Shown here: one piece after another, positions 17,930 through 52,129 of the stretch
How positions within the stretch are numbered: the stretch's first letter is position 1
How the letters are laid out: each line of letters opens with the position of its first letter
From: Patescibacteria group bacterium
GTDB taxonomy: Bacteria; Patescibacteriota; Patescibacteriia; XYB2-FULL-38-15
Reading direction: 5' to 3'
Assembly (NCBI GenBank): GCA_041653675.1
Contig: JBAZEY010000003.1
Coordinates: forward strand, 13,284-77,283
Length of the DNA stretch: 64,000 nt
The notes under the pieces: generated by a model
What the model was told of the DNA's origin: nothing
What the model saw: only the letters and a program-made list of their open reading frames with translations
The model's database searches: none
Made by a program: the position numbers and the translations under genes

Positions 17930-18059
17930 TAATTGTAAAATTAGAGATGGAGATTAAGTGAAATTTGCTTTAAAATAAAGGATAAAGCCAATTTCAGGTG
18001 ACCTTCAACTTTTGGAGAACAACCGTTCCGCGAGAGGGCGGAACAAGGAGGATTTAGTG

Positions 18060-18665
18060 ATGAAGACGACGATGATCGCGATGGTGCTTGTTTCCGTGTT
18101 CGCGACTGGCTGCTGGGATAGCTACCAGAACTACGGCGAAGACACTTCGCCCCTCGCGACTTGCGAGGTCGAGGTGACGACGAACGTGGTCGAGGTGGTG
18201 ATCACGGTGGACGGCGTCGTGATCGGTGGCGTTGCGGAACTCGCGACGGGCATGCACACTTTCGCTGCTACGGCTCCCGGGTATTACCCGGCAAGCGTGG
18301 TTGCGGAAGTAACCGAAGCATGCGCTCCGGTCGAACTCCAGCTCTTCCCGGATCTCGCCGGTGACTACGATCTCGTGCTACACAATAGCATCTATGATCG
18401 GCTGCTGCTCCACCTCGACCAGGATGAGGAAGGCAACCTCGTCGGCTACGACTGGTACACTGATGATCCGGGACACAGCTTCCAGGATTTCACCGGCACT
18501 GTTTCGTTCGATGGAGAAGTTCATCTCCTCTCGGACGATTCGGTCCGGCTGAATCTCACTGGCCGCTGGACTCCTCCGGGAATTGGTGGCGTCAGCCGTA
18601 TCGTCGGCAACTGGACCTCCGCTGCGGGAGGCGACGGAGACTGGCTCGCCGAGTCGCGACCGTAG
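18060..18665 (+). CDS. GC-rich lipoprotein with a PEGA-like domain
   Basis: RBS AAGGAGG 10 nt upstream. Lipoprotein signal MKTTMIAMVLVSVFATGC. The segment VVITVDGVVIGGVAELATGMHTFAATAPGYYPAS fits the PEGA pattern. About 60% GC against a roughly 40% background. Confidence 0.6.
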   Translation: MKTTMIAMVLVSVFATGCWDSYQNYGEDTSPLATCEVEVTTNVVEVVITVDGVVIGGVAELATGMHTFAATAPGYYPASVVAEVTEACAPVELQLFPDLAGDYDLVLHNSIYDRLLLHLDQDEEGNLVGYDWYTDDPGHSFQDFTGTVSFDGEVHLLSDDSVRLNLTGRWTPPGIGGVSRIVGNWTSAAGGDGDWLAESRP

Positions 18666-18676
18666 GTTACGACTCG

Positions 18677-18736
18677 AACCGGCATCTGGCAGAAATCGTG
18701 AAGAACGATTCTGTCGGATGCCGGTGTTTTTATTTC
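18677..18736 (+). terminator. Long imperfect hairpin plus T-run; copy 1 of a duplicated 58-nt element
   Basis: ccggcatctggcagaaatcg tgaagaa cgattctgtcggatgccgg followed by tgtttttatttc. Near-identical to 20278-20336. Confidence 0.6.
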
Positions 18737-18834
18737 AGAAAATCTAAAGAAGCACGCCTTGACTTTTGAGACATAATATATATGATAACGGCATAGATGG
18801 TCGGCTAGAGGTAGCCGACACAAGGAGGAGAAAG

Positions 18835-20184
18835 ATGAAAAAGGGGAACGGAAGGATCAAGGGGCTCTTTTTGATCGTCATCGCGACGATCGCGATTCTC
18901 GCCTATGCCGCTTGTGGCGACGACGAGCAGTTGTGTCCCAGCGCAGGGGACTGCATGGGACGGGAGTGCGGGCCGGATCCGGTTTGCATGACATCGTGCG
19001 GTGCATGCTCAATCGGAGAAGCATGTTCGGCGGACGGGATATGTATGCCGGACTGCGTGTCCAACTGCGCCGGCCGCGAGTGCGGATGGGACCCGGTCTG
19101 CGGCAACATGTCTTGCGGGACATGCCCGGCGGATCGGCCCAACTGCAATGCCACTACGGGGACTTGTTCGACTGATGGCCCGGATTGTCCGGCAGACCGC
19201 GACTGCGCCGGCCGCGAGTGCGGCCTCGATCCAATCTGCAGCGTTTCCTGCGGGACGTGTTCGGGCGGTGAGACGTGCAGTTCATCAGGAAGATGTGTTT
19301 GCGCTCCCAACTGCTCCGGCCGCGAGTGTGGGCTTGACCCAGTTTGTAGCGTCTCCTGCGGGACGTGTTCAAGCCCAGAGACATGCACTCCATCTGGAAC
19401 GTGCAACTGTACCAGGAACTGCGCCGGCCGTGAATGTGGTCCCGATCCGATTTGTGGCGTTTCCTGCGGCTCGTGTTCAGCTGGCTCATGCACCACGACG
19501 GGCACGTGCACCACGTGTTCATCCGGCGCAACGGAGTCGTGCGCCAATCTTTGCGGTTCGGCTGGCACGCGGAGTTGTAGTGTTTCGGGCGAATGGGGGC
19601 GGTGTCAGGGTGGGACTGCTCTGGTTCCTGTGGCTCTTACGGATGACACCTACATCGACAACGACCCCCCAACTGTCAACCACGGAACCGAAGAATTCGT
19701 GATCATAGGAAAGGGCGTTGCCGCTGACCCACGTCGCCTAGCATTCTTCCGTTTTGATGCGGATTTGGATACGTGGCGGGCGGAGGGCGCCACGTCGATA
19801 ATTCAGGCCGACCTGAGCGTATACGTGAGTGACCGCTTAGGCAGTCAACTTGAACTCTATGGTCTCTCAAATACGACCGGTGGTACTTGCGTGTGGAATG
19901 AAGATACACTGACGTATTACACCCAAGTCACCGCAGGAAGCACGAACTGCTATCCGGACCCGCTTGGCTGGGTCTACCCCGACATTTCGATGATTGTGGA
20001 TTACTCGATGGGCTACGTGGATATCACGGCGTATGTCCAGTGGCTTTGGGACGGCGCGGAGAACGACGGCTTCATGTTGACGAACAATTCGGGGAGTTCC
20101 ACTCCGTTTGCACGGTTGATTATCAACAGCACCGAGAATTCCCGGGATCCACCGAGCGTTTTGGTGAGAGTATCCTGCGAATAG
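18835..20184 (+). CDS. GC-rich secreted/lipoprotein: about 7 Cys-rich repeats (C..GRECG.DP.C..SCG.CS) plus a C-terminal DNRLRE-like domain
   Basis: RBS AAGGAGGAG. Signal LFLIVIATIAILAYAAC. Repeats such as DCAGRECGLDPICSVSCGTCSGGETCSSSGRC. The C-terminal domain carries the DNRLRE-family landmarks (DDTYIDNDPPTVNHG..., RLAFFRFDADL, WNEDTLTYYT, VDITAYVQWLWDGAENDGFML, INSTENSRDPPSVLVRV). Confidence 0.6.
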   Translation: MKKGNGRIKGLFLIVIATIAILAYAACGDDEQLCPSAGDCMGRECGPDPVCMTSCGACSIGEACSADGICMPDCVSNCAGRECGWDPVCGNMSCGTCPADRPNCNATTGTCSTDGPDCPADRDCAGRECGLDPICSVSCGTCSGGETCSSSGRCVCAPNCSGRECGLDPVCSVSCGTCSSPETCTPSGTCNCTRNCAGRECGPDPICGVSCGSCSAGSCTTTGTCTTCSSGATESCANLCGSAGTRSCSVSGEWGRCQGGTALVPVALTDDTYIDNDPPTVNHGTEEFVIIGKGVAADPRRLAFFRFDADLDTWRAEGATSIIQADLSVYVSDRLGSQLELYGLSNTTGGTCVWNEDTLTYYTQVTAGSTNCYPDPLGWVYPDISMIVDYSMGYVDITAYVQWLWDGAENDGFMLTNNSGSSTPFARLIINSTENSRDPPSVLVRVSCE

Positions 20185-20277
20185 CAGGAGAGCGGGCCGT
20201 GGACGGATTGTCTTAGCCCTCAGTACATAGATCGACGGGTGGCTGAATCTGGGTAGCCGAGTCACGGACGTGACCTA

Positions 20278-20336
20278 AACCGGCATCTGGCAGAAATCGC
20301 GAAGAACGATTCTGTCAGGTGCCGGCATTTTTTATT
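20278..20336 (+). terminator. Copy 2 of the duplicated hairpin-terminator element
   Basis: ccggcatctggcagaaatcg cgaagaa cgattctgtcaggtgccgg followed by cattttttatt. Confidence 0.6.
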
Positions 20337-20435
20337 ATAGAATTTTTCTTGACTTGATTTTTATGCTATAATTACTTAATTAATTTAACCGCTTATCCCC
20401 TAAAGTGAGTCTTTTGGGGAAAGTAAAACTTAAAT

Positions 20436-39087: not shown

Positions 39088-39270
39088 GGAGGTTGCCCCG
39101 TTAGAAGTCCTTGGAAAAAATTTTAATTAAAATTTTTTCGGAAGCAACGAGGTGAAATAAAATTCTCGCCATCTATTTAAGTAAAGCGTCTCTTAAATAG
39201 AGACAGACTTCTAACGGGGTTGACTTTTTTATTTTTTTGTTTCAAGATAAAGTCGCGAAAGGAGGACGCA

Positions 39271-39543
39271 ATGATGATCGGTCACCTCAAGGAGGAACTG
39301 AACGGCCCCGGGAGATATGTCTTTGGAATCTGGGATGGCACTGCCGGTTGTTACATCGGCGGAGCCGAGTGGATTGCTATCGTAACAGACGATCGTCAAA
39401 AGATGGCTGTGCGGCTTCAGGGAACGATTGACTTTTTTTCGTCGCAGGGATGTGACGGCGTGTCGAGTGACGTGCAGCGGATTATGACGCGCTACGGCGT
39501 CTCTCTATCGGAGAAGCTGAAGGTCTATCGGACCGCGAAGTGA
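39271..39543 (+). CDS. GC-rich orphan small protein (90 aa), unknown function
   Basis: RBS AAAGGAGGAcgcaATG. Composition is about 58% GC, in the spacer between uvrC and uvrA. Followed by a hairpin terminator. Confidence 0.5.
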   Translation: MMIGHLKEELNGPGRYVFGIWDGTAGCYIGGAEWIAIVTDDRQKMAVRLQGTIDFFSSQGCDGVSSDVQRIMTRYGVSLSEKLKVYRTAK

Positions 39544-39572
39544 GCCTTGGCAAACTTGCCCAGGCTCTTTTT
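39541..39572. terminator. Bidirectional terminator (serves the GC-rich gene on + and uvrA on -)
   Basis: agccttggcaaacttgcccaggct followed by ctttttttatttttt. Confidence 0.6.
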
Positions 39573-42167
39573 TTATTTTTTACTCAAGACTTTTTTCAAA
39601 TATTGTCCGGTGTATGATTTTGGATTTTTTGCCAATTCTTCCGGCGTGCCGACTGCGATAAGTTGTCCGCCGGCGTCGCCGCCATCAGGCCCTAAATCAA
39701 TAACCCAATCTGCTGTTTTAATAAAATCCAAATTGTGCTCGATAACGATAACTGTATTGCCCAAACTAACCAAGCGATGTAAAACTTCCAGCAATTTTTC
39801 CACGTCAGCATAATGCAAGCCAACAGTCGGTTCATCCAAAATATAAATTGTTCGGCCGGTAGAACGCCGGGCGAGTTCAGCGCCAAGTTTAATTCTCTGA
39901 GCTTCGCCGCCGGATAAAGTCGTCGCGGCTTGTCCAAGCGTTAAATATTGCAAACCAACTTCGCGGAGAATTTTTAGCCGATCATAAACCGGAGGGATAT
40001 TTCGGAAAAATCCTTCAGCCTCTTCAATTGTCATTTGCAAAATGTCGTGGATATTTTTTTCTTTATATTTTATGGCTAAAGTTTCCCGATCAAAACGAGT
40101 TCCCTTGCAAACTGGACAGGTAACATAAACTGCCGGCAGAAAATGCATTTCAATTTTAATTAAACCGGCGCCTTCGCAATTTTCGCAGCGTCCGCCCGGC
40201 ACGTTAAAACTAAATCGTCCCGGTTGGTAGCCGCGGGCGCGGGATTCGGGCAATGCGGTGAAAAGTTCACGAATGTGCGTCCAGGCACCGGTATAAGTTA
40301 CCGGGTTGGAGCGCGGCGTGCGGCCGATAGGAGATTGATCAATCACAATAACTTTATCTAAATAATCTAATCCTTCAATCCGGGCATGTTTTCCGATTTT
40401 CCAATTGGTATGATTTAGTTTATTGGAAAGCTCTTTATAAAGAATGTCATTTACGAGTGTGCTTTTTCCAGAGCCAGAAACGCCCGTCACGCAAACAAAT
40501 CTTTTGAGCGGAATTCTAACATCAATATTTTTTAAATTATTTTCCGTCGCCCCGACAATTTTTAATTGGCCGGAAGAAAAATATTTATTTTTTTCGTCAA
40601 CGTGTCGGCGTTTTTCCGGAATTTTTATAAATTTATCACCGCGCAAATACGCCGCGGTCAGAGAATTTTTGTCTTGTAAAACATCGGGCATCGGGCCAGC
40701 AGCGACAATTTCTCCGCCGTGCGTTCCGGCGCCGGGGCCGAGGTCAACTAAATAATCAGCCATCCAAATTGTTTCCGGATCGTGTTCCACGACAATCACC
40801 GTATTACCGATGTCGCGCAAATTCGCGAGGGTCGCCAATAATTTTTCATTATCTTTGGGATGGAGACCAATGGTCGGTTCGTCCAAAATATAGAGCGCGC
40901 CAACTAAGCGCGAGCCAACTTGCGAAGCGAGACGAATGCGTTGGGCTTCACCGCCGGAAAGAGTGCCGGCCGTGCGGCCAAGCGTTAAATATCCCAAGCC
41001 AACATTTAACATAAATTCCAGCCGGTTCATTATTTCTTTTAAAACAGTTTCCGCAATTTCAAGCTCGGTGTCATTTAATTTTTGCGTGGCCGTTTTTGAT
41101 TTTTCTTTGCCAGCCAAGGCGGTAAAAAAATCGCGCGCCTCTTCAATAGACATTTTTGTCACTTCAACAATATTTTTTTTGCCAACCAAAACATGCAAAC
41201 TTTCTTTTCTTAGTCTGTCTCCGCCGCAATCAGGACAGGGTTTTTCTGAAAATAAAGATTCAATACCAAGCCCATGGCATGTTGGGCAGGCGCCATAAGG
41301 ACTGTTGAACGAAAAAAGTCGCGGTTCAATTTCCGGAAAAGAAAAACCATCATCCGGACAAGAATATTTGGAAGACATTACAATTTCGTCGCCATTATCT
41401 AAAATAACTGTCGCGACTCCCTCCCCATGCTTTAAGGCTGTTTCCATGGCTTCGGCCAAACGCGCGCGCAGACCTTTATTATTTTCGAGCGGCCAGCCGA
41501 GCGTGATTTTGTCCACGACTAAATCAATGTTGTGCTGCTTGTAGCGGGCAAGAACAATTTTATTTCTAAGTTCTCTAAATTTTCCATTGACGCGCACTTC
41601 AGAAAATCCATCGTTATATAGATTGTATAGCAATTGATAATATTCGCCCTTTCGGCCGCGAACAACCGGCGCAAGAATCGTAAGGTGGTCGCTAAATTTT
41701 GTCGTAGGATTTTTATCCTGTTCATGAATTTCCGAAGTTTTTTTCAAAATCAAATCAACCATTTCCTCAACAGTCATTTTTTTAATTTCTTTTCCGCAGA
41801 CTGGACAATATGGTTTGCCGACGCGCGCGAAAAGCACGCGGAGGTAATCGTAAATTTCCGTGATGGTCGCGACCGTGGAGCGGGGATTGGCGCTGTGGGC
41901 TTTTTGGTCAATAGAAATGGCCGGCGACAATCCTTCAATTTCATCAACATCGGGTTTATCCATCTGACCCAAAAATTGCCGGGCGTAAGCCGAGAGTGAT
42001 TCCACATAACGCCGTTGGCCTTCGGCAAAAATGGTATCAAAAGCCAGGCTGGATTTTCCTGAACCGGAAAGTCCGGTGAAGACCGTTAATTTGTTTCGCG
42101 GAATTTCGAGAGAAACATTTTTTAGGTTATGTTCTCGCGCGCCTTTTATAATTATTTTATCTTGCAT
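39573..42167 (-). CDS. uvrA: Excinuclease ABC subunit A
   Basis: Two ABC ATPase modules ([29 protein letters not shown]), Zn fingers and LSGGE signatures. Confidence 0.95.
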
Positions 42168-42173
42168 ATATTG

Positions 42174-42202
42174 TTGACATTTTTTAATTTATTTGGAATA
42201 AT
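42174..42202 (+). promoter_or_regulatory. Sigma70-like promoter (TTGACA-17-AATAAT) driving the GC-rich element between uvrA and uvrB
   Basis: ttgaca ttttttaatttatttgg aataat. Confidence 0.45.
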
Positions 42203-42475
42203 TTTGTTATACGGTTTTGGTTTGCCACTTCGGCGAACCACCGTCCGAGGAAAGAAGGAGGTGGGAAGAACGGAGATGGAGAAGCGGTTCTCGCGGTTCG
42301 GCCTGCTGGACAAGGGCCAAGCGACGGCGCAGTCGGCGTGATGCGGTGATCCCGCTGGAGGTGAATGTCGGGGCACCCCTGACACGGGACGGAATTTCGT
42401 CGGTCAGCGGCTAACGGCCGCAACAGAAATGTGAGCCGGCGGGAAATTCTGGCAGCTCCGCAAGTCAAACCTTTC

Positions 42476-44500
42476 CTATGGCCCCGGGACGTGCTTCGGC
42501 GCGTTTCGGGGTTTTTTTAATTCTTTAATTTCATCCCGTAGTAATGCCGCCAGTTCGAATTCAAGCGCTTGCGCCGCGGCCTTCATTTGTCCTTCCTTCT
42601 CTTTTATAATTTCTTCAATATTTTTTCCTTTTTCGCCGATAACATCCAGATCCAAAATATTTTTAACTTTTTCTTTTGAAATTTCTTCGCCGACAATATC
42701 TTTTATTTTCTTTTGGATCGTCTTCGGAGTGATGCCGTGTTTTTTGTTATATTCCGTTTGTCTTTTTCTTCGGCGTTCGGTTTCGTTGATGGCGCGTTCC
42801 ATTGAGCCAGTCATTTGATCGGCATAAAGGATAACTTGGCCGCGAACATTGCGGGCTGCTCGCCCGATTGTCTGGATGAGTGAAGTTTCACTTCGCAAAA
42901 ATCCTTCTTTATCCGCGTCTAAAATTGCGACAAGCGTCACTTCCGGTAAATCCAGTCCTTCGCGCAATAAATTCACACCAACTAAAATATCAAATTTTCC
43001 TCGGCGGAATTCAGTCAAAATTTTTATCCGGTCCAATGTTTGCACTTCGCTATGAATATAATTAACTTTGAATTTTTTCTCCGCGAGATATTCGCTTAAA
43101 TCCTCGGCCATTTTTTTGGTTAGAGTTGTGACAAGGACGCGTTCGTTTCGTTTCACGCGATCGGCGATTCGTTCCATCAAATCATCAACCTGGGATTTTT
43201 CATCTTTGTTTTTTGGTGTGATAGGTTTAACAATAATTTCCGGGTCAATAAGGCCGGTTGGCCGGATTATTTGCTCAACGATTTGTCCACTTTTAGTTAA
43301 TTCATAATCAGCCGGCGTGGCTGAAGTATAAATTGTCTGTGGCACTCTTTTTTCAAATTCACTAAATTTCAGCGGCCGGTTGTCGGCGGCGGAAGGCAGG
43401 CGAAAACCAAAATCAACCAACGCCCGTTTCCGCGAAGCATCGCCTTCGTACATTCCGGAAAGCTGCGGCACGGTGACGTGTGATTCATCAATTACCATTA
43501 ACCAATCCTTATTTTTTCCAAAATAATCGAGCAAAGTTTCTGGCGGTTCGCCCGCGGCGCGGCCAGAAAGATGCCGTGAGTAATTTTCAATTCCGTGGCA
43601 GTAGCCGACCTCTTTAATCATTTCCAAATCATAATTTGTCCGACGTTCCAATCTTTCCGCTTCAAGCAATTTTCCATTTTTATTAAAATATTCCAAGCGG
43701 TCTTTTAATTCCGCTTTGATAGTTTTGAAAGCTCGTTCGCGTTCCGGGCCGAGGGTGACAAAATGTTTGGCTGGAAAAATCCAGACGTCGGTCGGTTCAT
43801 CTTTTATTTTTCTTGTCACCGGATCAATAGCAAAAATTTTCACGATTTTTTGTGCGCTTGATTCCACTCGATAAATAATTTCTTGGTTCACGGGCATTAT
43901 TTCTAAAGTTTCGCCACGCAAACGAAACTCGCCACGCTTTAAATCGGAATTTGTCCGATTGAATTGCATGGTGATGAGTTGGCTTAACAAATCAGTGCGG
44001 GTGATAACTTGATCTTTGGCCAAATGTAAAACTATTTTTTGATAAGTTTCCGGAGCACCCAAGCCGTAAATGCAAGAAACCGAAGCGACAATAATCACGT
44101 CGCGTCGTGTTAAAAGCGCCTGGGTCGCGGCGTGGCGGAGGCGATCGATCTCATCATTGATCATCGCTTCTTTTTCAATATAAGTGTCGGTCCGCGGCAA
44201 GTATGCTTCGGGCTGGTAGTAATCATAATAAGAAACAAAATATTCCACGGCATTGTCCGGAAAAAATTCGCGGAATTCATTGCAAAGTTGCGCCGCCAAA
44301 GTTTTGTTGTGAGCAATAACGAGCGTGGGTTTATTGATTTTCGCGATAACATTCGCCACGGTAAAAGTTTTTCCTGAACCAGTGACACCCAAAAGTGTTT
44401 GATGGGCGTGATTTTTTTTCAAACCATTAACAAGTTCGGCGATTGCTTTGGGCTGATCGCCGGCGGGTTTAAATTTTGATTTTAATTTGAATTTGTCCAT
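42476..44500 (-). CDS. uvrB: Excinuclease ABC subunit B
   Basis: Helicase motifs (GVTGSGKT, DESH), beta-hairpin and a C-terminal UVR domain. Confidence 0.95.
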   Translation of the reverse strand: MDKFKLKSKFKPAGDQPKAIAELVNGLKKNHAHQTLLGVTGSGKTFTVANVIAKINKPTLVIAHNKTLAAQLCNEFREFFPDNAVEYFVSYYDYYQPEAYLPRTDTYIEKEAMINDEIDRLRHAATQALLTRRDVIIVASVSCIYGLGAPETYQKIVLHLAKDQVITRTDLLSQLITMQFNRTNSDLKRGEFRLRGETLEIMPVNQEIIYRVESSAQKIVKIFAIDPVTRKIKDEPTDVWIFPAKHFVTLGPERERAFKTIKAELKDRLEYFNKNGKLLEAERLERRTNYDLEMIKEVGYCHGIENYSRHLSGRAAGEPPETLLDYFGKNKDWLMVIDESHVTVPQLSGMYEGDASRKRALVDFGFRLPSAADNRPLKFSEFEKRVPQTIYTSATPADYELTKSGQIVEQIIRPTGLIDPEIIVKPITPKNKDEKSQVDDLMERIADRVKRNERVLVTTLTKKMAEDLSEYLAEKKFKVNYIHSEVQTLDRIKILTEFRRGKFDILVGVNLLREGLDLPEVTLVAILDADKEGFLRSETSLIQTIGRAARNVRGQVILYADQMTGSMERAINETERRRKRQTEYNKKHGITPKTIQKKIKDIVGEEISKEKVKNILDLDVIGEKGKNIEEIIKEKEGQMKAAAQALEFELAALLRDEIKELKKPRNAPKHVPGP
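42482..42518 (+). terminator. Rho-independent terminator ending the GC-rich transcript (overlaps the last uvrB codons on the opposite strand)
   Basis: ccccgggacgtgcttcggcgcgtttcgggg followed by ttttttt. Confidence 0.55.
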
Positions 44501-44630
44501 ATACGCAAAAAATCCCCCAAGATTCCTCCTCGCTGGGAGGAGTGGGGCGCGTCTGTAAAGAAACGGCTGTCTAGCCGTTTGTTATTGTGAAGCCATCATA
44601 ACATGGACTGAGCCTATTGTCAACTCGTAC

Positions 44631-44659
44631 TTGACAAATGATATTTTCTGGCCTAAGAT
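44631..44659 (+). promoter_or_regulatory. Promoter (TTGACA-17-TAAGAT) for the GC-rich cNMP-binding gene
   Basis: ttgaca aatgatattttctggcc taagat. Confidence 0.45.
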
Positions 44660-44700
44660 GGGTAATCACGAACAAAAAGGGAGGGAAGGGAGGACTGATC

Positions 44701-45555
44701 GTGAGTGAAGAAACGAATGGTTGCCAGGGTAGTGAGCCCGTGGTCGAGGACAGATCTGAAAATTGCGTCCCTGGCGTCGAAGAAGACGGGGGAAGCAGCG
44801 AAAGGCAGTGCGATACTCTTGAGGGTTTGACGCAGTCGAAGGCGCTTGCCGCTTTTCTCGGGCAGCTCAAGATTGTGGAGATCCCTCCGGGCGGACGCCT
44901 TTACCAAGAAGGCGACCTCATCTCGCAAGTCTGCTACATCGTGAGCGGCAGGGTCGAAGTCAAGGCGACCGGTGAATTGATCGCCACAGTAGAAAAGGGC
45001 GAGCTGCTTGGGCTGGAAGAATTTCGTTACCGCAAGGAGAGCCCGAAATATACCCAAGAAGCGGTAGCTGTTCTGCCAACCTCGGTTGTCTGGCTGGATA
45101 ACGAAGGCCTAAGGACAGTCTTGGACTTGAACGCGGATTGTTTGGCGGCCTACGTTCGGCTACAGGCCAGAGTGAAGAGGGCGATCGAAAAGAAGCTCGG
45201 CCAGCTCAAGATAGACAAGAGCAAGCTGGAGGTTAGGGTTGCCCGACTGGGGGTAGCTTTGGGAGCAACCCAGGAGCAGCTCGTCAAGCTGCAAAAGCCG
45301 CCGCAGCCGCCTCCACCGCCGCGCAAACCTCTTCCATCAACAGCACTTCTTGGAAAGTTGGATGAAGCGCGTCGGGTTATTCGCGAGATGGGCCAGCTTT
45401 TCGTCGCGAGGGCCACAAACCTCAAGAAACTGCTCGTGGCTTTGCACGAGTTCGCCACGAAACATCCAGACTGGGCCAAACAGGAGGATTTCGTCGCGTT
45501 CAAGAAGAGCTTCGAAGGGCTTGTAGAACGTGATTCTCAATTCAAGGTGCCGTGA
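44701..45555 (+). CDS. GC-rich cyclic-nucleotide-binding domain protein with coiled-coil and Pro-rich segment
   Basis: GTG start with RBS AGGGAGGA. cNMP-binding fold (YQEGDLISQVCYIVSGRVEVKATGELIATVEKGELLGLEEF...). PPQPPPPPRKP linker. Confidence 0.6.
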   Translation: MSEETNGCQGSEPVVEDRSENCVPGVEEDGGSSERQCDTLEGLTQSKALAAFLGQLKIVEIPPGGRLYQEGDLISQVCYIVSGRVEVKATGELIATVEKGELLGLEEFRYRKESPKYTQEAVAVLPTSVVWLDNEGLRTVLDLNADCLAAYVRLQARVKRAIEKKLGQLKIDKSKLEVRVARLGVALGATQEQLVKLQKPPQPPPPPRKPLPSTALLGKLDEARRVIREMGQLFVARATNLKKLLVALHEFATKHPDWAKQEDFVAFKKSFEGLVERDSQFKVP

Positions 45556-45600
45556 AGCGGCACGAGCCGGACACTTTCAAGAGGTGTCCGGCATTTTATT
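45548..45600. terminator. Double hairpin bidirectional terminator
   Basis: gtgccgtgaagcggcac plus gccggacactttcaagaggtgtccggc followed by attttatttt. Confidence 0.6.
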
Positions 45601-45693
45601 TTATAACTTAATTATTAAATTTTTATAAAAAAATTCTGCCGCGGCTTGTGGCTTTGGCAGAATGGTGAAAACGATGGCGGCTGCTCGAGTTCG

Positions 45694-46449
45694 TTACCCG
45701 CAGCCGATTGGCGGGCACTTCACGGCAGTCCAGATTCCGAGGTTGTCGCCACTTGGCGAAACGATCGCTTCGCCCGTGACGTGCGTCTCGTCCGTAAAAT
45801 GGCCGACGTAACTTGTGCTGCCCGACGAGAAATTGATTTGCCGGCCATGGATCGTTGGCTCGTAGTAACTCGAGATGGCAGTAATGTCTCGGCCAGTTTG
45901 GCTGGCGTAGACGGCGACCGGAAAGGGGAAAGTTGCCCCGCTTAGTTCCCAGGCGCCTTCAGCGTTGATGACACTTTTCACGATGTGCGGCGCACTGCAG
46001 ACTTCCGGTTGGCAATCAACACAGCCTGCATCAATCGCCTCGCAGTCGTTCGTCACGCAAGCTGTGACAGTAGCCTCTGGTTCTGTATCACCGCCGAGGT
46101 CAAGAATGTCAGCCGTGGTTTGGACGAGCGTCATGGCTTCTCGCCGCGTTTCGATTGACGCTTCAATGGGTGCGAGACTCACAAGCGACGAATCGGAAAC
46201 GCGCCACTCCACGTCCTTGATCAGGATTCCATCGGAATTGTAGACGTAGGCGTGGAGTTTGTAGGCGTCGGCGTTCGTGGTGTCGCCGGTTGGCACGGGA
46301 GAAACGTTGGCTTCCGTGCTCGGAGTGCAATCCGAGACGATCGCCACAGCCATGGCGACACTCGAGTCGTTGGGACAGCGTTCGATGAACTCGTTCCGGC
46401 AGCCGAGCGCCATCACGAAAAGAACCGCAATCATCATCTTCGTTTTCAT
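45694..46449 (-). CDS. GC-rich lipoprotein, possibly Ig-like (Big_2-like) fold
   Basis: RBS TAAGGAGGA with promoter TTGAAA-16-TAAAAT on the minus strand. Lipoprotein signal MKTKMMIAVLFVMALGC. Multiple Cys pairs. Confidence 0.5.
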   Translation of the reverse strand: MKTKMMIAVLFVMALGCRNEFIERCPNDSSVAMAVAIVSDCTPSTEANVSPVPTGDTTNADAYKLHAYVYNSDGILIKDVEWRVSDSSLVSLAPIEASIETRREAMTLVQTTADILDLGGDTEPEATVTACVTNDCEAIDAGCVDCQPEVCSAPHIVKSVINAEGAWELSGATFPFPVAVYASQTGRDITAISSYYEPTIHGRQINFSSGSTSYVGHFTDETHVTGEAIVSPSGDNLGIWTAVKCPPIGCG

Positions 46450-46516
46450 CTGTATCCTCCTTACTGATTTTATTTTAACAAACTAAAAATAAATTTCAAA
46501 ATTTATAAAATAAAAA

Positions 46517-46560
46517 AAGGGGCTTCCGCGCGGCGTTACGAAACACCTTGCGGAAGCCCT
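46517..46560 (-). terminator. Strong Rho-independent terminator (minus strand)
   Basis: gggcttccgcaaggtgtttcgtaacgccgcgcggaagcccc followed by tttttttatttt on the minus strand. Confidence 0.7.
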
Positions 46561-47140
46561 TGGTCCCTTGGGAGTTATCCTCCAGATTTCTCCTTTGAAT
46601 CTCTCCCGGGAGTCCTTGGTCAGGCGCCCTTGCCCAACCTCATCGGGGAGTTAACCCCGTCTGGTAGCCCGTTTTTTCCCATCGGGCTCGGGGCGGCATT
46701 TTTAGACCGGAGTGACTGACATGCTAGCCAGCACGCGATCTTAACGAGGTAACCGCCGCTTTTCACTGCGTTTACGGCGCCGCGCTTGTGACGGCGATTG
46801 CAGCACCCCGACGGGTCTGCTGATTCTGGTCTTGGGGCGCATTCCATTTTGTCCCCAAAACTCTGGTTGCCCGTCCACCAGGGATCAGACGATTTATATT
46901 GCCGCGCCGTCTGCCAGGGCGCTTTAACCCTCCGCTCTGATCTCCTTCCCTTGGTAGCGAAGATGTGGAGCCGCCGGTTATCTACCTCAATCGAAGCACG
47001 GCTCCGATCGCGCCGTTTTGCGGGCACTGGTTATCTCCGAGCTCAAACCAATCCCGCCCCCGGGTAGACGAATTTATGTCCGCGCCAGCCTACCTTTGGC
47101 GCTCTGCCGATACATCCCCGTGCCACCACCTCCTTCTGTG
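46561..47140 (-). other. About 600-nt GC-rich non-coding block ending at the terminator
   Basis: No ORF with protein-like composition in any frame (only Arg-rich artefactual ORFs). Many local hairpins. It is contiguous with the GC-rich island and could be a structured RNA or a decayed coding remnant. Confidence 0.3.
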
Positions 47141-47473
47141 AAGAAAAACAAATTATTTATTTATCTTCATAGAAGGAAATAGGCGCAGAGAATTTTTAAG
47201 GTTAGTATAGATCTATTTTTTTGTCAAGAGTTTCGGAAAAAACAAAGAAAGGCCACTTGGCCCTCCTTGTTAATATATTTTAATATTAACTTTAAGAACA
47301 GCAGGAACAGCCTTTTAATCTCTTCGTGTGCTTCCGCAATTCTTTGCCCTTTTTGGTATTTTTAAGAGCGTGTTTTGTTCTGGCTTTCGCCGCGCTATTT
47401 TGTCCCATATTATTTAACTATTAATGATTTAATGAATTAATTTTGTCATATTGTCGGTAAGTCGTCAACTCCA

Positions 47474-47502
47474 TTGATTTTTTACGCTAAATTTTGTATA
47501 AT
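47474..47502 (+). promoter_or_regulatory. Promoter TTGATT-17-TGtTATAAT for the SPFH gene
   Basis: ttgatt ttttacgctaaattttg tataat. Confidence 0.5.
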
Positions 47503-47532
47503 TAAAGACAAACTAATTAATAAATTTAAACT

Positions 47533-48297
47533 ATGGAAAACGCTTTAATTACGATAGGCATAATCGTGGTGGCGATTATTTTAGCTTCCATCCGCCAGGT
47601 CAACCAATACCAGCGGGGAGTGAAGTTCACGATGGGGCGATATTCTGGAATTATGGCGCCGGGTTGGCGTTTGGTGATTCCCGTTTTTCAAACCGCTAGA
47701 AAAGTTGATATGAGAATCAAAGCGGTTGATGTTCCGGATCAAGAAGCGATTACTAAAGACAACATTTCTGTTCGCGTGAACGCCGTGATTTATTACAAAG
47801 TCCGCGACGCGAATCAAGTAATTATTGAAGTAGAAGATTTTGGTTATGCCACTTCTCAACTTGCCCAGACGACGATGAGAAACGTGGTCGGCGAAGTAAA
47901 TCTCGATGAGTTACTTTCAAGCCGCGAAGCCATTGCCGAGAAAATTAGAGAAATTGTTGATAAGGCCACAGACGCCTGGGGTATCGAAGTTCATTCCGTG
48001 GAATTGAAAGACGTGACTTTGCCGGAAGAAATGAAACGGGTCATTGGCAAACAGGCCGAGGCAGAAAGAGAAAAGAGATCAGTAATTATTAAGGCTGAAG
48101 GCGAAGTAATTGCCGCGGAAAATTTGGCCAAAGCCGCGAATACTCTAGCAACTTCCGACGGTGCGTTGCATCTTCGAACCTTAAGCACGATCAATGATGT
48201 AAGTTCTGACCAATCCAACACAATTGTTTTTGCTATACCGCTTGAAATTTTGAGAGCGTTTGAGAGGATAGGAAAAAAAGATAAAGATCAGGCGTAA
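47533..48297 (+). CDS. SPFH/band-7 (stomatin/prohibitin-like) membrane protein
   Basis: N-terminal TM, SPFH core (YQRGVKFTMGRYSGIMAPGWRLVIPVF...) and a coiled-coil C-terminus. Confidence 0.85.
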   Translation: MENALITIGIIVVAIILASIRQVNQYQRGVKFTMGRYSGIMAPGWRLVIPVFQTARKVDMRIKAVDVPDQEAITKDNISVRVNAVIYYKVRDANQVIIEVEDFGYATSQLAQTTMRNVVGEVNLDELLSSREAIAEKIREIVDKATDAWGIEVHSVELKDVTLPEEMKRVIGKQAEAEREKRSVIIKAEGEVIAAENLAKAANTLATSDGALHLRTLSTINDVSSDQSNTIVFAIPLEILRAFERIGKKDKDQA

Positions 48298-48390
48298 AAA
48301 TTTTTAGAAATAAAAGGTAGCCCCACGAAGGCTGCTTTTTATTTTGCAAAAGATATTGACAAAAAGAGTCGGAGGTGTTAAAACAAAAAC

Positions 48391-48550
48391 GGTGAGGCGA
48401 CTGTGTCCTTGGCTTACTACGTAAGACCGGGGCGGTCGAGGACCAAGCCGCGCGCGGCTAACTCACGAGGGCGGATCGGATGTGGTCCCGCGACTCCTCC
48501 ACGACGGGGTGTGCAGTTCTAGACAACCTGCCCCCCGTCACTTTTTTTTA
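48391..48550 (+). ncRNA. Candidate small RNA (about 160 nt, GC-rich) with its own promoter and terminator; class unknown
   Basis: Promoter TTGACA(48356)-17-TAAAAC. Nested hairpins. Terminator gacggggtgtgcag...ctgccccccgtc plus T8. No plausible ORF or RBS. Confidence 0.35.
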
Positions 48551-48595
48551 TCAAAAAAACGCTCCGATCACCTCGGGGCGTTTTTGTTTAAAAAT

Positions 48596-49039
48596 TTATT
48601 TTATTCCGCGTTCGTTAAAAAAATCAGTGTAGTGTTTGTCTAGAGAAATGACGTGGCGCAAAAGCCAGTCTATGGCAAAATCGGAAAGATCGTGGGCGAT
48701 TTTTTTTACGTCCGCGTTCGGACTTTGCGCTTTGGCTAAAAATTCTTTTATTGTTTCACGATAGCGATTATGTTCGGCAACGTGAAGTTCTTGCTCGGGA
48801 AATTTATATGCTTCAAAATAAGTTTCTTCAGAGGAAAAGTGGAGTGAGGCGTAATTGCTAAACTCAATTAAGCTCATTAAGATTTTTTCCTGACTGACCC
48901 CGTCCTGAATAGAGAGGACATCAATCTGATTTGCGAGATCGATATAACGTTTGTGTTGGTCGTCAAAAGTTTTTACGCCGACGCTGTAATTTTCGTTCCA
49001 AATAAAAGGCATATTTTTAAAATAAAGTTTTATTATCAA
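48596..49039 (-). CDS. Bacteriohemerythrin-like protein
   Basis: FxWxxxYSVGxxxFDDQHKRYI, HFSSEE, HxxxH and a C-terminal HV motif consistent with hemerythrin metal ligands. Confidence 0.65.
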   Translation of the reverse strand: MIIKLYFKNMPFIWNENYSVGVKTFDDQHKRYIDLANQIDVLSIQDGVSQEKILMSLIEFSNYASLHFSSEETYFEAYKFPEQELHVAEHNRYRETIKEFLAKAQSPNADVKKIAHDLSDFAIDWLLRHVISLDKHYTDFFNERGIK

Positions 49040-49109
49040 GCGAGCGATGATAACATGAAGTATTGATTAAAATTTATCACTTTATATATTTTTTGTAAAT
49101 AAAAAAACC

Positions 49110-49138
49110 TTGACAAATTTTTAGAAAAATATTATTGT
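49110..49138 (+). promoter_or_regulatory. Canonical promoter TTGACA-17-TATTGT
   Basis: ttgaca aatttttagaaaaatat tattgt. Confidence 0.5.
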
Positions 49139-49192
49139 TTATAGTCCGAATTGGTTTTGGCACGCAACCCATTCCTGGAGAAGGAGGAGAGG

Positions 49193-49465
49193 ATGGACAA
49201 GAGGTTCACGGATCTGACGCGCGAGGGAAGGATTCGACTGAGGGACTTCCTCCTGGCGCACGCCGAGAAGGGCGAGGAGGTCGTCGCGATCAAGGAGGTA
49301 CCGGTCGAAGGGAGGGCGCGTGTGGCCTTCGAGGAAGGCGAGCTCATCTGCGTTTCCCCCGTCTTCGTGGTCGAGGCGACCAAGAAGGAGATCTGGGTGT
49401 GCCACGCGTGGGACACCGAAGGGATTGTCCTCTGCCCCGATTACCCCTGCATCGTGCGGGTGTAG
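49193..49465 (+). CDS. GC-rich orphan small protein (90 aa), unknown function
   Basis: RBS GGAGAAGGAGGAGAGG then ATG. About 62% GC. Terminator ggccacctgaaacatggtggcc plus T-run at 49478-49515. Confidence 0.5.
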   Translation: MDKRFTDLTREGRIRLRDFLLAHAEKGEEVVAIKEVPVEGRARVAFEEGELICVSPVFVVEATKKEIWVCHAWDTEGIVLCPDYPCIVRV

Positions 49466-49534
49466 CGCCCGCGAACAGCACAACCAATCTGGCTCCTGGC
49501 CACCTGAAACATGGTGGCCTTATTTTTTTATAAT

Positions 49535-49729
49535 TTATTTATCAAACGAAAACAGGTCGTCAATTTTAACGCGCAGAACTTTCGCTACGTCGTGAGCCAA
49601 GCCGAGCGAGGGATTGTATTTTCCTTGTTCCAAAAAGACGATCGTTTCTCGCCGGACGCCAACTAATTTCGCGAGATCTTCCTGCGTGAGGTTGTGTTTT
49701 ATTCTTAATTCTTTAATTTTATTTTGCAC
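49535..49729 (-). CDS. XRE-family HTH transcriptional regulator
   Basis: [29 protein letters not shown]. Confidence 0.85.
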
Positions 49730-50096
49730 GTTGGTAATACTTAAAAATAAAACTATAAAGAAGCATCAAGCCGCAAACGGCATAAGCCAGAGTTGAACCA
49801 ACCAGTTCAAAATCGGGCCTGTCTTTTTTTAGAGCGAACAAAACTAAAATTATTACGCAGGAAATGGCGGAGAAAATAGTCATCGCGTATCTCGCGGCGT
49901 TTCCGGCAATTTTATAATCTCTCTCATCGGCCAAGACTTCGTTAACTTTTTTCCGCATAAGTAGGAGAAAAATTAGGGCCGTGATTACGGCCGCGATTGG
50001 CACGAGGTAATTGCCGGCCGCGACAAAAGAAGAAACTACGCCGGCCAGCAGCATAACTACTATCAGGCGATAAACCAGGAATTTTTTTGCAGTCAT
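49719..50096 (-). CDS. Small 4-TM membrane protein (DUF2178-like partner of the XRE regulator)
   Basis: Four hydrophobic helices. Translationally coupled with the downstream HTH gene. Confidence 0.5.
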
Positions 50097-50274
50097 AAGT
50101 TTTATTTAATATTTAACCTCTAATTCTATGTTACATATTTCTAACATACTTGTCAAGTGGATAAAATTTATTATAACCATTTTAAAATAAAACAAAAACG
50201 CCTCCGATTTACTGGAGACATTTCAAATTATTTTTTTAGCCAGCGTTTTACATTTAACAATTAAAATTCAACAG

Positions 50275-51024
50275 TTAGTAAATAACCACGGCTTTTTTAT
50301 CAAGCAGCTCCCAGTTTTTTAAAAAATCTTTTACCGTTAATCTTATCTCGCCGTAAATAGGATCTAAAAGGATCATTAATTTTGGATTGTCCGAGTTGCC
50401 GGTAAAACCAATTAATGTCCGAGCATGTTCATCCAGCTGGGCATTAATAATTTTTCCTTCGGGAGTTGTCCAAGATATATCTTTGGTTCTGCCAACTATT
50501 TTTCCCCAAACTACGATCGGATTATTATTTGTTAATTCTGTTATCAAATCATTCAGCGTTCCGTTGGCAATAATTTTTGCCGATCGGTATTTTGAAGCTA
50601 GATCATAAATCGGTTGTTCGTAAACGCCATAGCCGGTATTTGGCATTGCACCGTCGATGTTGCCGACAAAACCTAAATTAGGATCGCCCCAGATATTATT
50701 TTGATGGCGCGGCTCCGGATCGGAAATAGGCAACTGCTGAATTAATTCGCTTTCCGTAACTTTTATTCCTTTGTAGTTTAAGGCCATCAGCAAGGAAGCA
50801 ATTTCACAAGAGAGCGCATGTTCCTGGCGGTGGTAGGGGACAGCTAGATCAACCGCCGGTTTAATTGGTATAATAACGCGTTCAATCTGGTAGTAAATTT
50901 TTTTGACAACACTTACTTTCCCCTTAACACTATCTATCGTCAGCTCAAACACCAACCAGGCAATCAATAAAACAACTATCACCAGTAATAGCAAAAGACG
51001 TATTTTTTTTATTTTTTTAAACAT
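50275..51024 (-). CDS. Secreted peptidase C39-like (papain-fold) domain protein
   Basis: Signal anchor. YHRQEHALSCEIASLLMALNY matches the C39-like catalytic Cys context. Confidence 0.45.
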   Translation of the reverse strand: MFKKIKKIRLLLLLVIVVLLIAWLVFELTIDSVKGKVSVVKKIYYQIERVIIPIKPAVDLAVPYHRQEHALSCEIASLLMALNYKGIKVTESELIQQLPISDPEPRHQNNIWGDPNLGFVGNIDGAMPNTGYGVYEQPIYDLASKYRSAKIIANGTLNDLITELTNNNPIVVWGKIVGRTKDISWTTPEGKIINAQLDEHARTLIGFTGNSDNPKLMILLDPIYGEIRLTVKDFLKNWELLDKKAVVIY

Positions 51025-51029
51025 AGTGG

Positions 51030-51521
51030 TTAGATGTTATAAAAATCAAAATCTTGAGGTACAGATAAGGCGTCCATGTTCATTTTATTGTTTTTCTCAA
51101 AATTACATTCCATTATGATATTACAGGCTTTTCTAAAATCATCATATAAATCTTCAGCCACCAGTATAAGTTGGCCATTAACTATTTTGAGGTGATAATT
51201 GCCGTATCTTTTTGCTTCTTCTCTGTGTGTTAGACCGATATTGTGTTTGGGTAATAATGCATGGGTCATGCCATTTCGAAGAGAGTCACATAGATTAAAT
51301 TGGCTATTAAACGGAATGTATTTTGGCATGAGCTCATTTATGGCCATGTTGAAGTGAATTGCGGAAAAGCCGCTCTGCTGCCAAGATCTATTTTCGTCTA
51401 AACATTTACCGAGAAATTCTATTCCGATTCCAATTAAAACAAAAGACAAATAAGGATATTTATAAGAAATTTGTCTGTATTGTTCTAGAAAAGTGATTCT
51501 GATAAATTCTTTTGGCAACAT
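51030..51521 (-). CDS. Hypothetical protein
   Basis: ORF only. Confidence 0.3.
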   Translation of the reverse strand: MLPKEFIRITFLEQYRQISYKYPYLSFVLIGIGIEFLGKCLDENRSWQQSGFSAIHFNMAINELMPKYIPFNSQFNLCDSLRNGMTHALLPKHNIGLTHREEAKRYGNYHLKIVNGQLILVAEDLYDDFRKACNIIMECNFEKNNKMNMDALSVPQDFDFYNI

Positions 51522-51585
51522 AAGATTTTTTTATAATTTCGTCTGGCTGGTTTATTATACGAACTAGTATATTTTAATTATACTC

Positions 51586-51650
51586 TATTTCCCAAAACCA
51601 AAACACCTCCAGCAAAGGAGATGTTTTAGTGGGGTCGCGTAGTGGAGGTT
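51586..51650 (-). terminator. Copy 1 of a duplicated terminator element (conserved flanks, compensatory stem changes)
   Basis: tatttcccaaaaccaaaacacctcc...tagtggggt is shared with 52087-52133. The stem is acatctcctttgctggaggtgt here versus acacctctctaaaaggaggtgt in copy 2. Confidence 0.5.
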
Positions 51651-51781
51651 GTTAGAACTTTTTTCGGGGATAAGCAATTTTCCATTCCTTGCTTGGAGGA
51701 ATATCTTGACAGAAAAATTTTTGTATGTTAATTTAACCTGTCCATCCGAAATTAAGGTCGGTTGAGGATAAGGAGGGCAAC

Positions 51782-52036
51782 ATGAGGCTCCGTGAAGTGC
51801 GAATCGGGATGCGGGTGAAAGTGACGCGGCTCGGAAGCACGGAAGGCATGGCCGTTAAGCCAAAATATCTGCAGGCACGCCGACTTGGCGCTCGCGGCAA
51901 GATCATGAACTACATCGCCGGCCACGGTGGCGATTGTTGGTGGATCCGGCATGACGACGGAACGATCGGCGGCTACGGCTACATGGAATTCCAGCGCGTC
52001 CGGTCAAAGCGTCGGACCGGGGAGCGGACCAAGTAG
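51782..52036 (+). CDS. GC-rich small protein (84 aa), SH3/KOW-like and possibly DUF1918-like
   Basis: RBS TAAGGAGGG. Motifs IGMRVKVTRLG...GKIMNYIAGHGGDCWWIRHDDGTIGGY. About 62% GC. Terminator at 52055-52090. Confidence 0.5.
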   Translation: MRLREVRIGMRVKVTRLGSTEGMAVKPKYLQARRLGARGKIMNYIAGHGGDCWWIRHDDGTIGGYGYMEFQRVRSKRRTGERTK

Positions 52037-52129
52037 CCGCATACTTCACGCAGTTAGACCTCTGCAGAACAAAAGGTCTTTTTTTTATTTCCCAAAACCA
52101 AAACACCTCCTTTTAGAGAGGTGTTCTAG

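Follow-up and report, generated by a model that had tools for sequence, protein, structure and literature searches.

GC-rich, Shine–Dalgarno-led units in fixed slots of an AT-rich Patescibacteria chromosome

Horizontally acquired genomic islets reportedly stand out by an atypical composition, which undergoes amelioration. Replacement-type flexible islands, such as O-antigen, pilin and surface-protein loci, are hypervariable loci with conserved flanks. Phage 'moron' genes carry their own promoter and terminator, and GC-rich islands are said to mark structured RNA genes in AT-rich genomes. Patescibacteria, or bacteria of the candidate phyla radiation (CPR), have tiny genomes and live as obligate partners of other microbes, and little is known of how they gain and vary their host-facing genes. 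Here, we analyze a stretch of 64,000 nucleotides from a Patescibacteria chromosome (GCA_041653675.1, contig JBAZEY010000003.1, positions 13,284 to 77,283; hereafter the window), which contains six short GC-rich segments, the cassettes. A sequence-only reading had proposed that all six were acquired through a shared mechanism. We find that the segments hold nine units, most of them from families that occupy the same slots in related genomes. With moderate confidence, we interpret these units as a flexible pool of genes with GC-rich ancestry that relatives exchange laterally, together with RNA genes, built by ordinary transfer and recombination.

Like ameliorating islets, the cassettes have atypical codon usage and GC content at third codon positions (GC3), are patchily present, drift toward the composition of the recipient and, in one case, lie beside a transfer RNA (tRNA) gene with a duplicated end. 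They differ from the usual islet in being GC-rich within an AT-rich genome, the opposite of the common case, and in being single genes with their own promoter, Shine–Dalgarno (SD) sequence and terminator, which mostly match the clade in age but have a composition far removed from that of the core. As in replacement islands, the loci are the same in every relative, alleles diverge beyond the core genes, mosaics and recent tracts occur, and products are surface-exposed; however, the cassettes are single small genes, not multi-gene clusters, and the variable part differs from its flanks in composition. One unit, C6, resembles tRNA-site prophage remnants and morons, in that it is flanked by a duplicated 3′ end of tRNA-His, belongs to a phage-early family and has its own promoter and terminator, but it is a single unit of the nine and its element measures only ~445 bp, with no integrase or other phage gene. 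Two further units, E47 and probably E42, are like GC-island RNA genes: they are GC-rich, have their own promoter and terminator and no conserved open reading frame (ORF), and E47, perhaps also E42, shows conserved helices with compensatory changes. Unlike the known RNAs of such islands, they match no Rfam family, and E47 exists in short and long forms and is variably present among close relatives.

Composition and expression signals of the segments

Sliding GC content is 0.55–0.63 at 18.0–20.3, 39.2–39.6, 42.2–42.5, 44.6–47.1, 49.2–49.5 and 51.7–52.1 kb and ~0.40 elsewhere, and these peaks coincide with the six places named in the sequence-only reading. Two other GC-rich stretches, at 10.4–13.4 and 16.2–17.4 kb, are native Gly/Ala-rich repeat genes with a GC3 of 0.37–0.38 and had rightly been left out. 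The six segments comprise nine monocistronic units, namely seven protein ORFs and two units without a conserved protein ORF; the segment at 18 kb holds two genes, and that at 44.6–47.1 kb holds two genes and one RNA. Hence the earlier count of six is correct for segments and too low for units, two of which look like RNAs and not like protein genes. The encoded proteins are three secreted lipoproteins (C1a, C1b and LIPO), one cyclic-nucleotide-binding protein (cNMP), and three proteins of 84–90 residues (C2, C5 and C6).

We compared the seven cassette ORFs with 34 native genes of the window. GC3 is 0.64–0.87 in the former and 0.25–0.50 in the latter, with no overlap of the ranges (Mann–Whitney p=9e-8). 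An AAGGAGG-type SD of at least 5 nt precedes all seven cassette ORFs and only 5 of the 34 native genes (Fisher p=3.5e-5), which bears out the earlier remark that host genes mostly lack this signal. The lysine codon AAG makes up 78% of Lys codons in cassettes versus 15% in native genes, and ATC makes up 67% versus 21% of Ile codons. Every unit has a sigma-70-like promoter (TTGACA-16/17-TAnnnT) of the same type as the native promoters of uvrB, Band7 and the tRNA operon. The 3′ end of each of the nine units is a hairpin followed by a T-run and thus an intrinsic terminator, so the host-type promoter and hairpin terminator ascribed to the cassettes are present throughout. The promoters have a GC content of 0.11–0.31, whereas the 5′ and 3′ untranslated regions (UTRs) have 0.49–0.65. 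This places the composition step at the transcript start and extends it beyond codons alone; codon-level selection alone is ruled out as a cause, because the UTRs are GC-rich too. With high GC in UTRs as well as codons, and an SD in a mostly SD-less genome, the cassettes are indeed compositionally foreign. They had also been described as strictly intergenic, which holds with one exception: the terminator of E42 encodes the last ~12 codons of uvrB on the opposite strand.

Sharp composition steps might also arise in an assembly or binning chimera, if GC-rich reads of other organisms had been joined to those of a CPR contig. Over 39059–52168, which covers five segments with their junctions, the window is 99.9% identical to an independent ENA assembly (L001), and its proteins are found again in assemblies from Logan, JGI and NCBI. 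At least eight related genomes, from different samples, have orthologous units in these slots, and the junctions carry coherent promoters and terminators. The agreement with L001 across the junctions excludes chimerism for practical purposes, and we give it virtually no chance.

Fixed slots, divergent alleles and exchange among relatives

The related contigs (L002, L004–L009, L011 and L094–L104) have UvrA proteins 88–94% identical, and one source metagenome-assembled genome (MAG) is named Candidatus Falkowbacteria. The relatives keep the order pgi-uvrC-uvrA-uvrB-...-Band7, with GC-rich SD-led genes in the same slots, and at least eight related genomes share gene families as well as their slots with the window. 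For example, cNMP is present in 8 and LIPO in 7–8 of the 10 related loci that were compared (a fragmentary LIPO copy accounts for the range), and the slots of C1a/C1b, C2, C5, E42 and E47 are common to several relatives. A search of 5.8 billion proteins with LIPO and C5 returned 32 LIPO and 6 C5 homologs; all appear to lie within the clade, and every context read was syntenic. Sharing of families and slots across relatives means that the units are not six separate recent captures. Clustering of all GC-rich ORFs from the 10 related loci placed no family in two slots.

The most divergent family of the clade is cNMP, whose gene converges on LIPO:

44631–44659 (+): promoter of cNMP (TTGACA-17-TAAGAT; promoter match), back-to-back with the uvrB promoter
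44701–45555 (+): cNMP, a 284-residue protein with a cyclic-nucleotide-binding domain (PF00027) and a hypervariable body, GC3 0.64
45566–45602 (+): terminator of cNMP, hairpin with a 12-bp stem and T-run
45625–45662 (−): terminator of LIPO, hairpin TTCTGCC..GGCAGAA and T-run
45694–46449 (−): LIPO, a 251-residue lipoprotein with an Ig-like domain and an 8-stranded beta-barrel, GC3 0.67, convergent with cNMP
46472–46499 (−): promoter of LIPO (TTGAAA-16-TAAAAT; promoter match)

The promoter, 5′ UTR and first ~15 codons of cNMP (44400–44750) are 76–82% conserved in all relatives, and the convergent terminator spacer (45588–45674) is 87–96% conserved; the body of the gene (44750–45590) gives no blastn alignment to any relative. 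Amino acid identity among the cNMP proteins of the 8 genomes is 21–37% for most pairs, and GC3 is 0.60–0.71 throughout. LIPO alleles are 35–75% identical and mosaic, with different halves matching different relatives. Between relatives, core genes have a synonymous divergence (dS) of 0.75–1.5 and a nonsynonymous divergence (dN) of 0.03–0.09, while dN reaches 0.7–1.2 for most pairs of cNMP and 0.18–0.75 for LIPO. Both genes are thus hypervariable loci, with alleles more diverged than the core at one and the same place between conserved flanks. The cNMP protein is laid out as an acidic N-terminal region, one cNMP-binding domain, a Pro-rich linker and a coiled-coil-like C-terminus of ~140 residues, with no DNA-binding or effector domain. 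Membership of the cassettes in a defence system was considered and ruled out: the only match in PADLOC is a weak, domain-level one between cNMP and Pycsar proteins (E=1e-7), with no cyclase or effector domain.

Other slots vary in content. The uvrB/uvrA spacer is 4 bp long in L002 and L004, is occupied by E42 in the window, L006 and L094, and holds an AT-rich gene of 98 residues in L007 and L011. The uvrC/pgi slot is empty in the window and filled in L002 and L007 only, by a 308-residue gene (GC3 0.78) inserted within the uvrC terminator. Between conserved AT-rich flanks, the Band7/LIPO slot carries E47, an oppositely oriented gene of 72–78 residues, or a gene for a YfbR-like nucleotidase, each cargo with its own promoter. 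The 308-residue gene has a dS of 0.009 between L002 and L007 versus 0.89 for the core, its dN (0.029) exceeding dS, and a tract of ~840 bp (L002 14533–15372) that is 98–100% identical to L007 ends inside it. Very old alleles together with very recent tracts indicate locus-specific lateral exchange among relatives by homologous recombination.

The genes C2 and C5 are small and differ less between relatives at synonymous sites than the core does:

39221–39249 (+): promoter of C2 (TTGACT-17-CAAGAT; sequence reading), GC 0.17
39271–39543 (+): C2, a 90-residue protein in the uvrC/uvrA slot, GC3 0.65, with same-slot homologs in L004/L005, L006 and L097
39542–39578 (+): terminator of C2, hairpin GAGCCTGG..CCAGGCTC and T-run
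49110–49138 (+): promoter of C5 (TTGACA-17-TATTGT; promoter match)
49193–49465 (+): C5, a 90-residue protein, GC3 0.87, with only 6 homolog clusters
49498–49530 (+): terminator of C5, hairpin and T-run

The uvrC/uvrA slot of L002, L007 and L101 contains an 88-residue type that is different from C2 or very divergent to it; between L002 and L007, the gene in this slot has a dS of 0.33 versus 0.88 in the core. Homologs of C5 for which context is available lie in the same neighbourhood of relatives, and dS is 0.43–0.49 for C5 versus 0.75–1.0 for core genes. Between the divergent uvrC and C2 genes, there is also a perfect 14-nt inverted repeat (39096–39109 and 39206–39219; CCCCGTTAGAAGTC / GACTTCTAACGGGG) with arms 96 nt apart, one in the uvrC leader and the other abutting the −35 box of C2. 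It may represent an operator or a long-range stem.

The segment at 18.0–20.3 kb holds two lipoprotein genes and a repeated terminator, T*:

17901–17929 (+): promoter of C1a (TTGACA-17-TATTAT; 11/12 match), GC 0.17
17932–18059 (+): leader of C1a, with an AT-rich distal and then a GC-rich proximal part that includes the SD; motif ATTGTAAAATTA.AG.TGGAGATTA.G
18060–18665 (+): C1a, a 201-residue lipoprotein with lipobox FATGC, GC3 0.72, 80% identical to its ortholog in L104
18677–18731 (+): terminator T*, copy 1, a 17-bp imperfect hairpin and T-run; three copies in L104
18759–18786 (+): promoter of C1b (TTGACT-16-TATGAT), with an orthologous sequence in L104
18835–20184 (+): C1b, a 449-residue lipoprotein with five Cys-rich repeats and a CBM96/DNRLRE domain (domain matches), GC3 0.65
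20238–20332 (+): degenerate copy of the C1a 3′ end and terminator T*, copy 2, 91% identical to copy 1

C1a, like C2, matches no family of Pfam, NCBIfam or PHROG, and the dS of C1a relative to the L104 ortholog is 0.63, compared with 1.2–1.8 for flanking core genes. In L104, the C1 slot (6092–9800) is a tandem array of GC-rich genes encoding the C1a ortholog, an M10-like peptidase lipoprotein (a weak match) and a C1b homolog (42% identical). T* follows each of these three lipoprotein genes, and the same promoter and leader precede two of them; accordingly, the leader motif occurs once in the window and twice in L104, before two different lipoprotein genes. In the window, the 55-nt T* repeat follows both C1a and C1b, such that direct repeats bracket C1b. 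The window has two units and L104 three, and a single unit is what would be gained or lost if T* copies recombined with each other.

At the far end of the region, C6 lies next to a tRNA-Arg/His pair and a recombinase gene:

51586–51638 (+): left direct repeat, a pseudo-copy of the tRNA-His 3′ end and terminator, 83% identical to 52086–52138
51706–51734 (+): promoter of C6 (TTGACA-17-TAATTT; sequence reading), GC 0.17
51782–52036 (+): C6, an 84-residue protein, GC3 0.74, found within the clade in this genome only
52056–52088 (+): terminator of C6, hairpin AGACC..GGTCT and T-run
52086–52138 (+): right direct repeat, the true 3′ end of tRNA-His (gene at 52130–52203, minus strand) and terminator, from repeat comparison
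52347–53264 (−): XerC/D-type tyrosine recombinase beside the tRNA-Arg/His pair, from profile scores

The direct repeats around C6, an att-like duplication, are 53–66 nt long and about 80–83% identical. Bracketing by a duplicated tRNA-His 3′ end is the signature of a tRNA-integrated element, here reduced to about 445 bp, and nothing except C6 lies between the two repeats, neither an integrase nor any other phage gene. The C6 family has 430 homolog clusters, two of which come with long contigs (GC 0.61 and 0.52). On these, the homologs (49–53% identity) are beside genes for a repressor, a DNA methyltransferase, NinB, an Erf-like annealing protein, an HNH endonuclease and a baseplate-hub/lysozyme protein, neighbors that identify phage early regions. 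Judged from its sequence, C6 is a remnant of a prophage or other mobile element, with att-like repeats and a mobile-element-related cargo and no integrase of its own.

These repeats bring up a different explanation, namely a dedicated system that captures cassettes as circles at hairpins which also serve as terminators, whether integron-like or Xer-mediated. Terminator-hairpin direct repeats bracket both C1b and C6, three T* copies punctuate the L104 array, the 308-residue unit sits within the uvrC terminator, and the tyrosine recombinase is 260 bp from C6. Moreover, like integron cassettes, the units are small, mostly have a single ORF and end in an imperfect hairpin, and one tandem array shares a 3′ element. 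Unlike integron cassettes, they have their own promoters and are scattered over 34 kb on both strands, and neither IntI nor attI nor, in the nine 3′ ends read, an attC core is present; T* shows no R''/R' attC core and no GTTRRRY in a reading of its sequence. Nothing is common to the nine boundaries except TTGAC(A), AAGGAGG and T-runs, which are generic expression signals, and T* and the C1a leader were seen in their own slot only. The recombinase has its highest matches to the XerC and XerD models (252 and 247 bits, below the cut-offs of 335 and 330) and reaches only 126.7 bits on the integron-integrase model TIGR02249 (cut-off 265). It is kept at the same position in L004, L006 and L007, all of which lack C6, and is probably not part of the cassettes. 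With no shared boundary motif and no family in more than one slot, nothing supports a common capture mechanism. Integron-like capture is ruled out by the lack of IntI, of an attC core and of a shared boundary motif, and we consider dedicated capture in general very unlikely; the proposal of one shared acquisition mechanism is not borne out. Beside the Xer/tRNA region of two relatives (L006 1538–2999 and L007 1–79), we also note a reverse transcriptase of the diversity-generating retroelement (DGR) type with a bAvd accessory gene, which the window lacks, and, next to these, very GC-rich genes of 155 residues (GC3 0.95) and 189 residues (GC3 0.90).

Source and persistence of the GC-rich composition

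Relatives outside the clade were found for two units only. C1b has an N-terminal, Cys-rich half with ~50% identity to proteins from Myxococcota/Deltaproteobacteria MAGs, and C6 has relatives on phage-like contigs of 52–61% GC. Transfer from GC-rich organisms is therefore supported for these two units and plausible for the rest. The suggestion that the cassettes originated in a GC-richer source fares well for C1b and C6, and the two RNA units would need no donor. We found no relatives of LIPO, C1a, C5 or C6 in IMG/VR, none of C6, C5 or C2 in cultured phages and none of C6 in plasmids, and no PHROG family matches any cassette protein.

The direction of change was read from synonymous third-position changes, polarised by nearest-neighbour triplets (parsimony). 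In the cassettes, 215 changes went from GC to AT and 114 from AT to GC (binomial p=3e-8). Core genes, with 822 and 962 changes, respectively, are near equilibrium at a stationary GC3 of 0.43 (Fisher cassettes versus core p=1.5e-10). At four-fold sites, the cassette counts of 114:53 are close to the ~114:39 predicted from core rates. This net loss of GC fits amelioration of GC-rich imports. Pure neutral amelioration was rejected, as the cassette counts are off both equilibrium and the core-rate ratio at all synonymous sites, less clearly at four-fold sites.

Several observations weigh against a pool of foreign, decaying genes. AT-to-GC change per site is ~2-fold higher in cassettes than in the core (0.31 versus 0.16), and the apparent stationary GC3 of cassettes is 0.62–0.67, not 0.43. 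Such a plateau would fit partial maintenance, by selection or GC-biased gene conversion, or an artefact of parsimony. Families whose age matches that of the clade (core dS up to 1.5) have retained a GC3 of 0.60–0.76. No unit has a high-identity donor, and LIPO and C5 are without homologs outside the clade in the search of 5.8 billion proteins; for LIPO, C5, C1a, C2 and cNMP, it is composition, and nothing else, that suggests foreign ancestry. Finally, in slot replacements each cargo brings its own promoter, and the promoters of the cassettes are of a perfect native type.

The GC-rich state may instead be actively maintained, through GC-biased gene conversion at highly recombining loci or through selection on mRNA (stability, structure, GC-ending two-fold codons), with the SD co-adapted. 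Besides the raised AT-to-GC rate and the plateau, this is favored by cNMP and LIPO alleles that all keep their high GC3 despite saturated synonymous divergence, by a dS below that of flanking core genes for C1a, C2 and C5, by direct evidence of recombination inside cassette genes, and by GC-richness that begins at the transcript start, UTRs included, and not at the promoter. However, the net GC-to-AT excess and its near-core ratio at four-fold sites speak for decay, C1b and C6 have GC-rich outside relatives, and low dS is equally explained by recent lateral exchange. The effect itself, a GC3 higher by 0.25 to 0.45 with step-like edges, is far above the size that biased gene conversion reportedly has in bacteria. 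We regard active maintenance as unlikely, although it has a real claim to attention.

A search of GTDB genomes with UvrB retrieved a best match of 67% identity and not the close clade, so 12 more distant CPR loci serve as a rough check. Most of these are without a strong GC3 outlier, and one (L014, a Candidatus Magasanikbacteria MAG) has a striking one: an isolated 200-residue gene at 3475–4300 with a GC3 of 0.82 and the SD AGGGGAGG, in a locus with a median GC3 of 0.29. Single GC-rich SD-led islets therefore also exist in a more distant CPR lineage.

That gene, together with the DGR-type reverse transcriptases near the region in L006 and L007, could also be read as a sign of ongoing direct transfer from a GC-rich host cell of an episymbiont, either as DNA or as reverse-transcribed host mRNA; the sequence-only reading had named a GC-rich host as one possible source. 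A GC-rich segment that spans leader and SD to terminator, behind an AT-rich promoter, would agree with such an origin. In the same vein, a 2026 preprint reports uptake of host RNA by Patescibacteria and GC-rich hosts with complementary codon usage (bioRxiv 10.64898/2026.06.21.733656). Yet the majority of families have long resided in fixed slots and lack relatives in any GC-rich genome, outside relatives reach ~50% identity at best, and C6 points to a phage, not a host chromosome. Furthermore, the window contains no reverse transcriptase. On balance, direct transfer from a host seems improbable to us.

There is also a slim chance that the cassettes make up a second, host-like class of genes, with GC-rich codons, a strong SD and transcripts that are GC-rich from 5′ end to terminator, which is maintained and not decaying. 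Such a class may be renewed from imported GC-rich host nucleic acids, or its products or transcripts may be tuned to act or be expressed in the host; the products in question are the surface lipoproteins, the cNMP-binding protein, the nucleotidase of relatives and the structured RNAs.

If, as we favor, the cassettes are a laterally exchanged pool of GC-rich ancestry, the protein units would descend from GC-richer genomes or their mobile elements and would have arrived on separate occasions, for the most part ahead of the divergence of the sampled relatives. From then on, they would have stayed in fixed intergenic slots, while being exchanged, replaced, duplicated and lost between relatives via homologous recombination, with the conserved flanks (core genes, promoter/leader modules and terminator modules) acting as homology arms. 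The units evolve fast and lose GC slowly. Their native-type promoters could reflect that only units with a promoter working in this cell are expressed and kept. The strong SD may be retained because a GC-rich 5′ region cannot support the AU-rich mode of initiation, independent of an SD, on which native genes appear to rely. The RNA units, in turn, would be GC-rich simply because helices in an AT-rich genome are.

One implication is that the variable, fast-evolving and largely surface-directed genes of one clade can be recognised from sequence, by a GC3 >0.6 and an SD in a genome with a GC3 of ~0.4 and few SDs. GC-rich islands in CPR genomes also flag new structured RNAs, as exemplified by E47 (~330–650 nt, with covariation). 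Together, these marks allow candidate genes for host interaction and for RNAs to be picked from CPR MAGs at little cost. The finding reveals no new mobile-element mechanism; it raises the testable question of why this class does not blend into the genome. No paper describing such cassettes, GC-rich and SD-led, in CPR genomes came up in full-text literature searches, and a study of horizontal gene transfer and islands in Patescibacteria, mostly between Patescibacteria, does not describe the pattern (PMC12455944).

RNA-like units and neighboring features

Two units have no conserved protein ORF:

46505–47190 (−): E47, a candidate structured RNA of ~650 nt (fold and covariation), with its terminator at 46512–46560
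47195–47227 (−): promoter region of E47 (−35 TTGACA at 47227–47222; −10 uncertain), with TTGACAAAAAA
42174–42202 (+): promoter of E42 (TTGACA-17-AATAAT, TG-extended; 11/12 match)
42212–42520 (+): E42, a GC-rich transcript of ~300 nt antisense to uvrB-uvrA, in the window, L094 and L006

E47 lies upstream of LIPO on the same strand. Its core of ~330 nt is conserved in 7 genomes (the window, L009, L011, L094, L095, L097 and L099), in a short form of ~400 nt or a long form of ~650 nt, and TTGACAAAAAA in the promoter region is kept in 7/7 homologs. The predicted fold is more stable than that of shuffled sequences (z=-4.66) and includes a hairpin at the 5′ end in which an AGAAGGAGGUGG box is paired. 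Of the 83 predicted pairs, 15 show compensatory changes, such as UA to CG within the helix GGAGUUGU/ACAACUCC. The ORF at the start of E47 is not conserved, having 3, 13, 14 or 50 codons depending on the genome. These features make E47 a candidate for a new structured RNA family, absent from Rfam: neither E42 nor E47 has a match there, and nothing credible was returned at E<=10 over 42000–47400.

E42 consists of an invariant leader, a variable ORF of 16–24 codons (42276–42341, with in-frame indels), a conserved 3′ region of ~110 nt and a terminator (42480–42520). In the three available sequences, the small ORF varies more than the leader and the 3′ region do. Folding gives z=-2.2, and 4 of 92 pairs have changed on both sides, a count that comes from three sequences only. 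E42 could be a structured RNA or a small-protein gene, and is probably the former. As RNA genes, E42 and E47 would need no donor for their GC content. At 42476–42512 (−), uvrB finishes with ~12 codons read from the strand opposite to the E42 terminator. Where the slot is empty, in relatives, only 4 bp separate the end of uvrB from uvrA, which indicates that the insertion of E42 rewrote the uvrB C-terminus and split a tight uvrB-uvrA pair.

The window is otherwise an ordinary chromosome, with uvrC, uvrA, uvrB, ftsK, ychF, pnp, pgi, a Xer-type recombinase, Band7 and giant repeat surface proteins (Pfam), and three tRNA genes that are the sole Rfam 15 matches reaching the gathering threshold. The giant surface proteins (2412 and 804 residues, encoded at 7992–15230 and 15415–17829) are built of Gly/Ala/Tyr-rich repeats of ~27 residues (NYGGYF...GVYG) with a Pro-rich tail, and the GC-richness of their genes is confined to codon positions 1 and 2. 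Finally, a conserved, very basic ORF of 38 residues (MGQNSAAKARTKHALKNTKKGKELRKHTKRLKGCSCCS) at 47292–47408 (−) has native composition and its own terminator. It is found upstream of Band7 in all relatives and is called as a gene, of 32 residues, in L009 alone.

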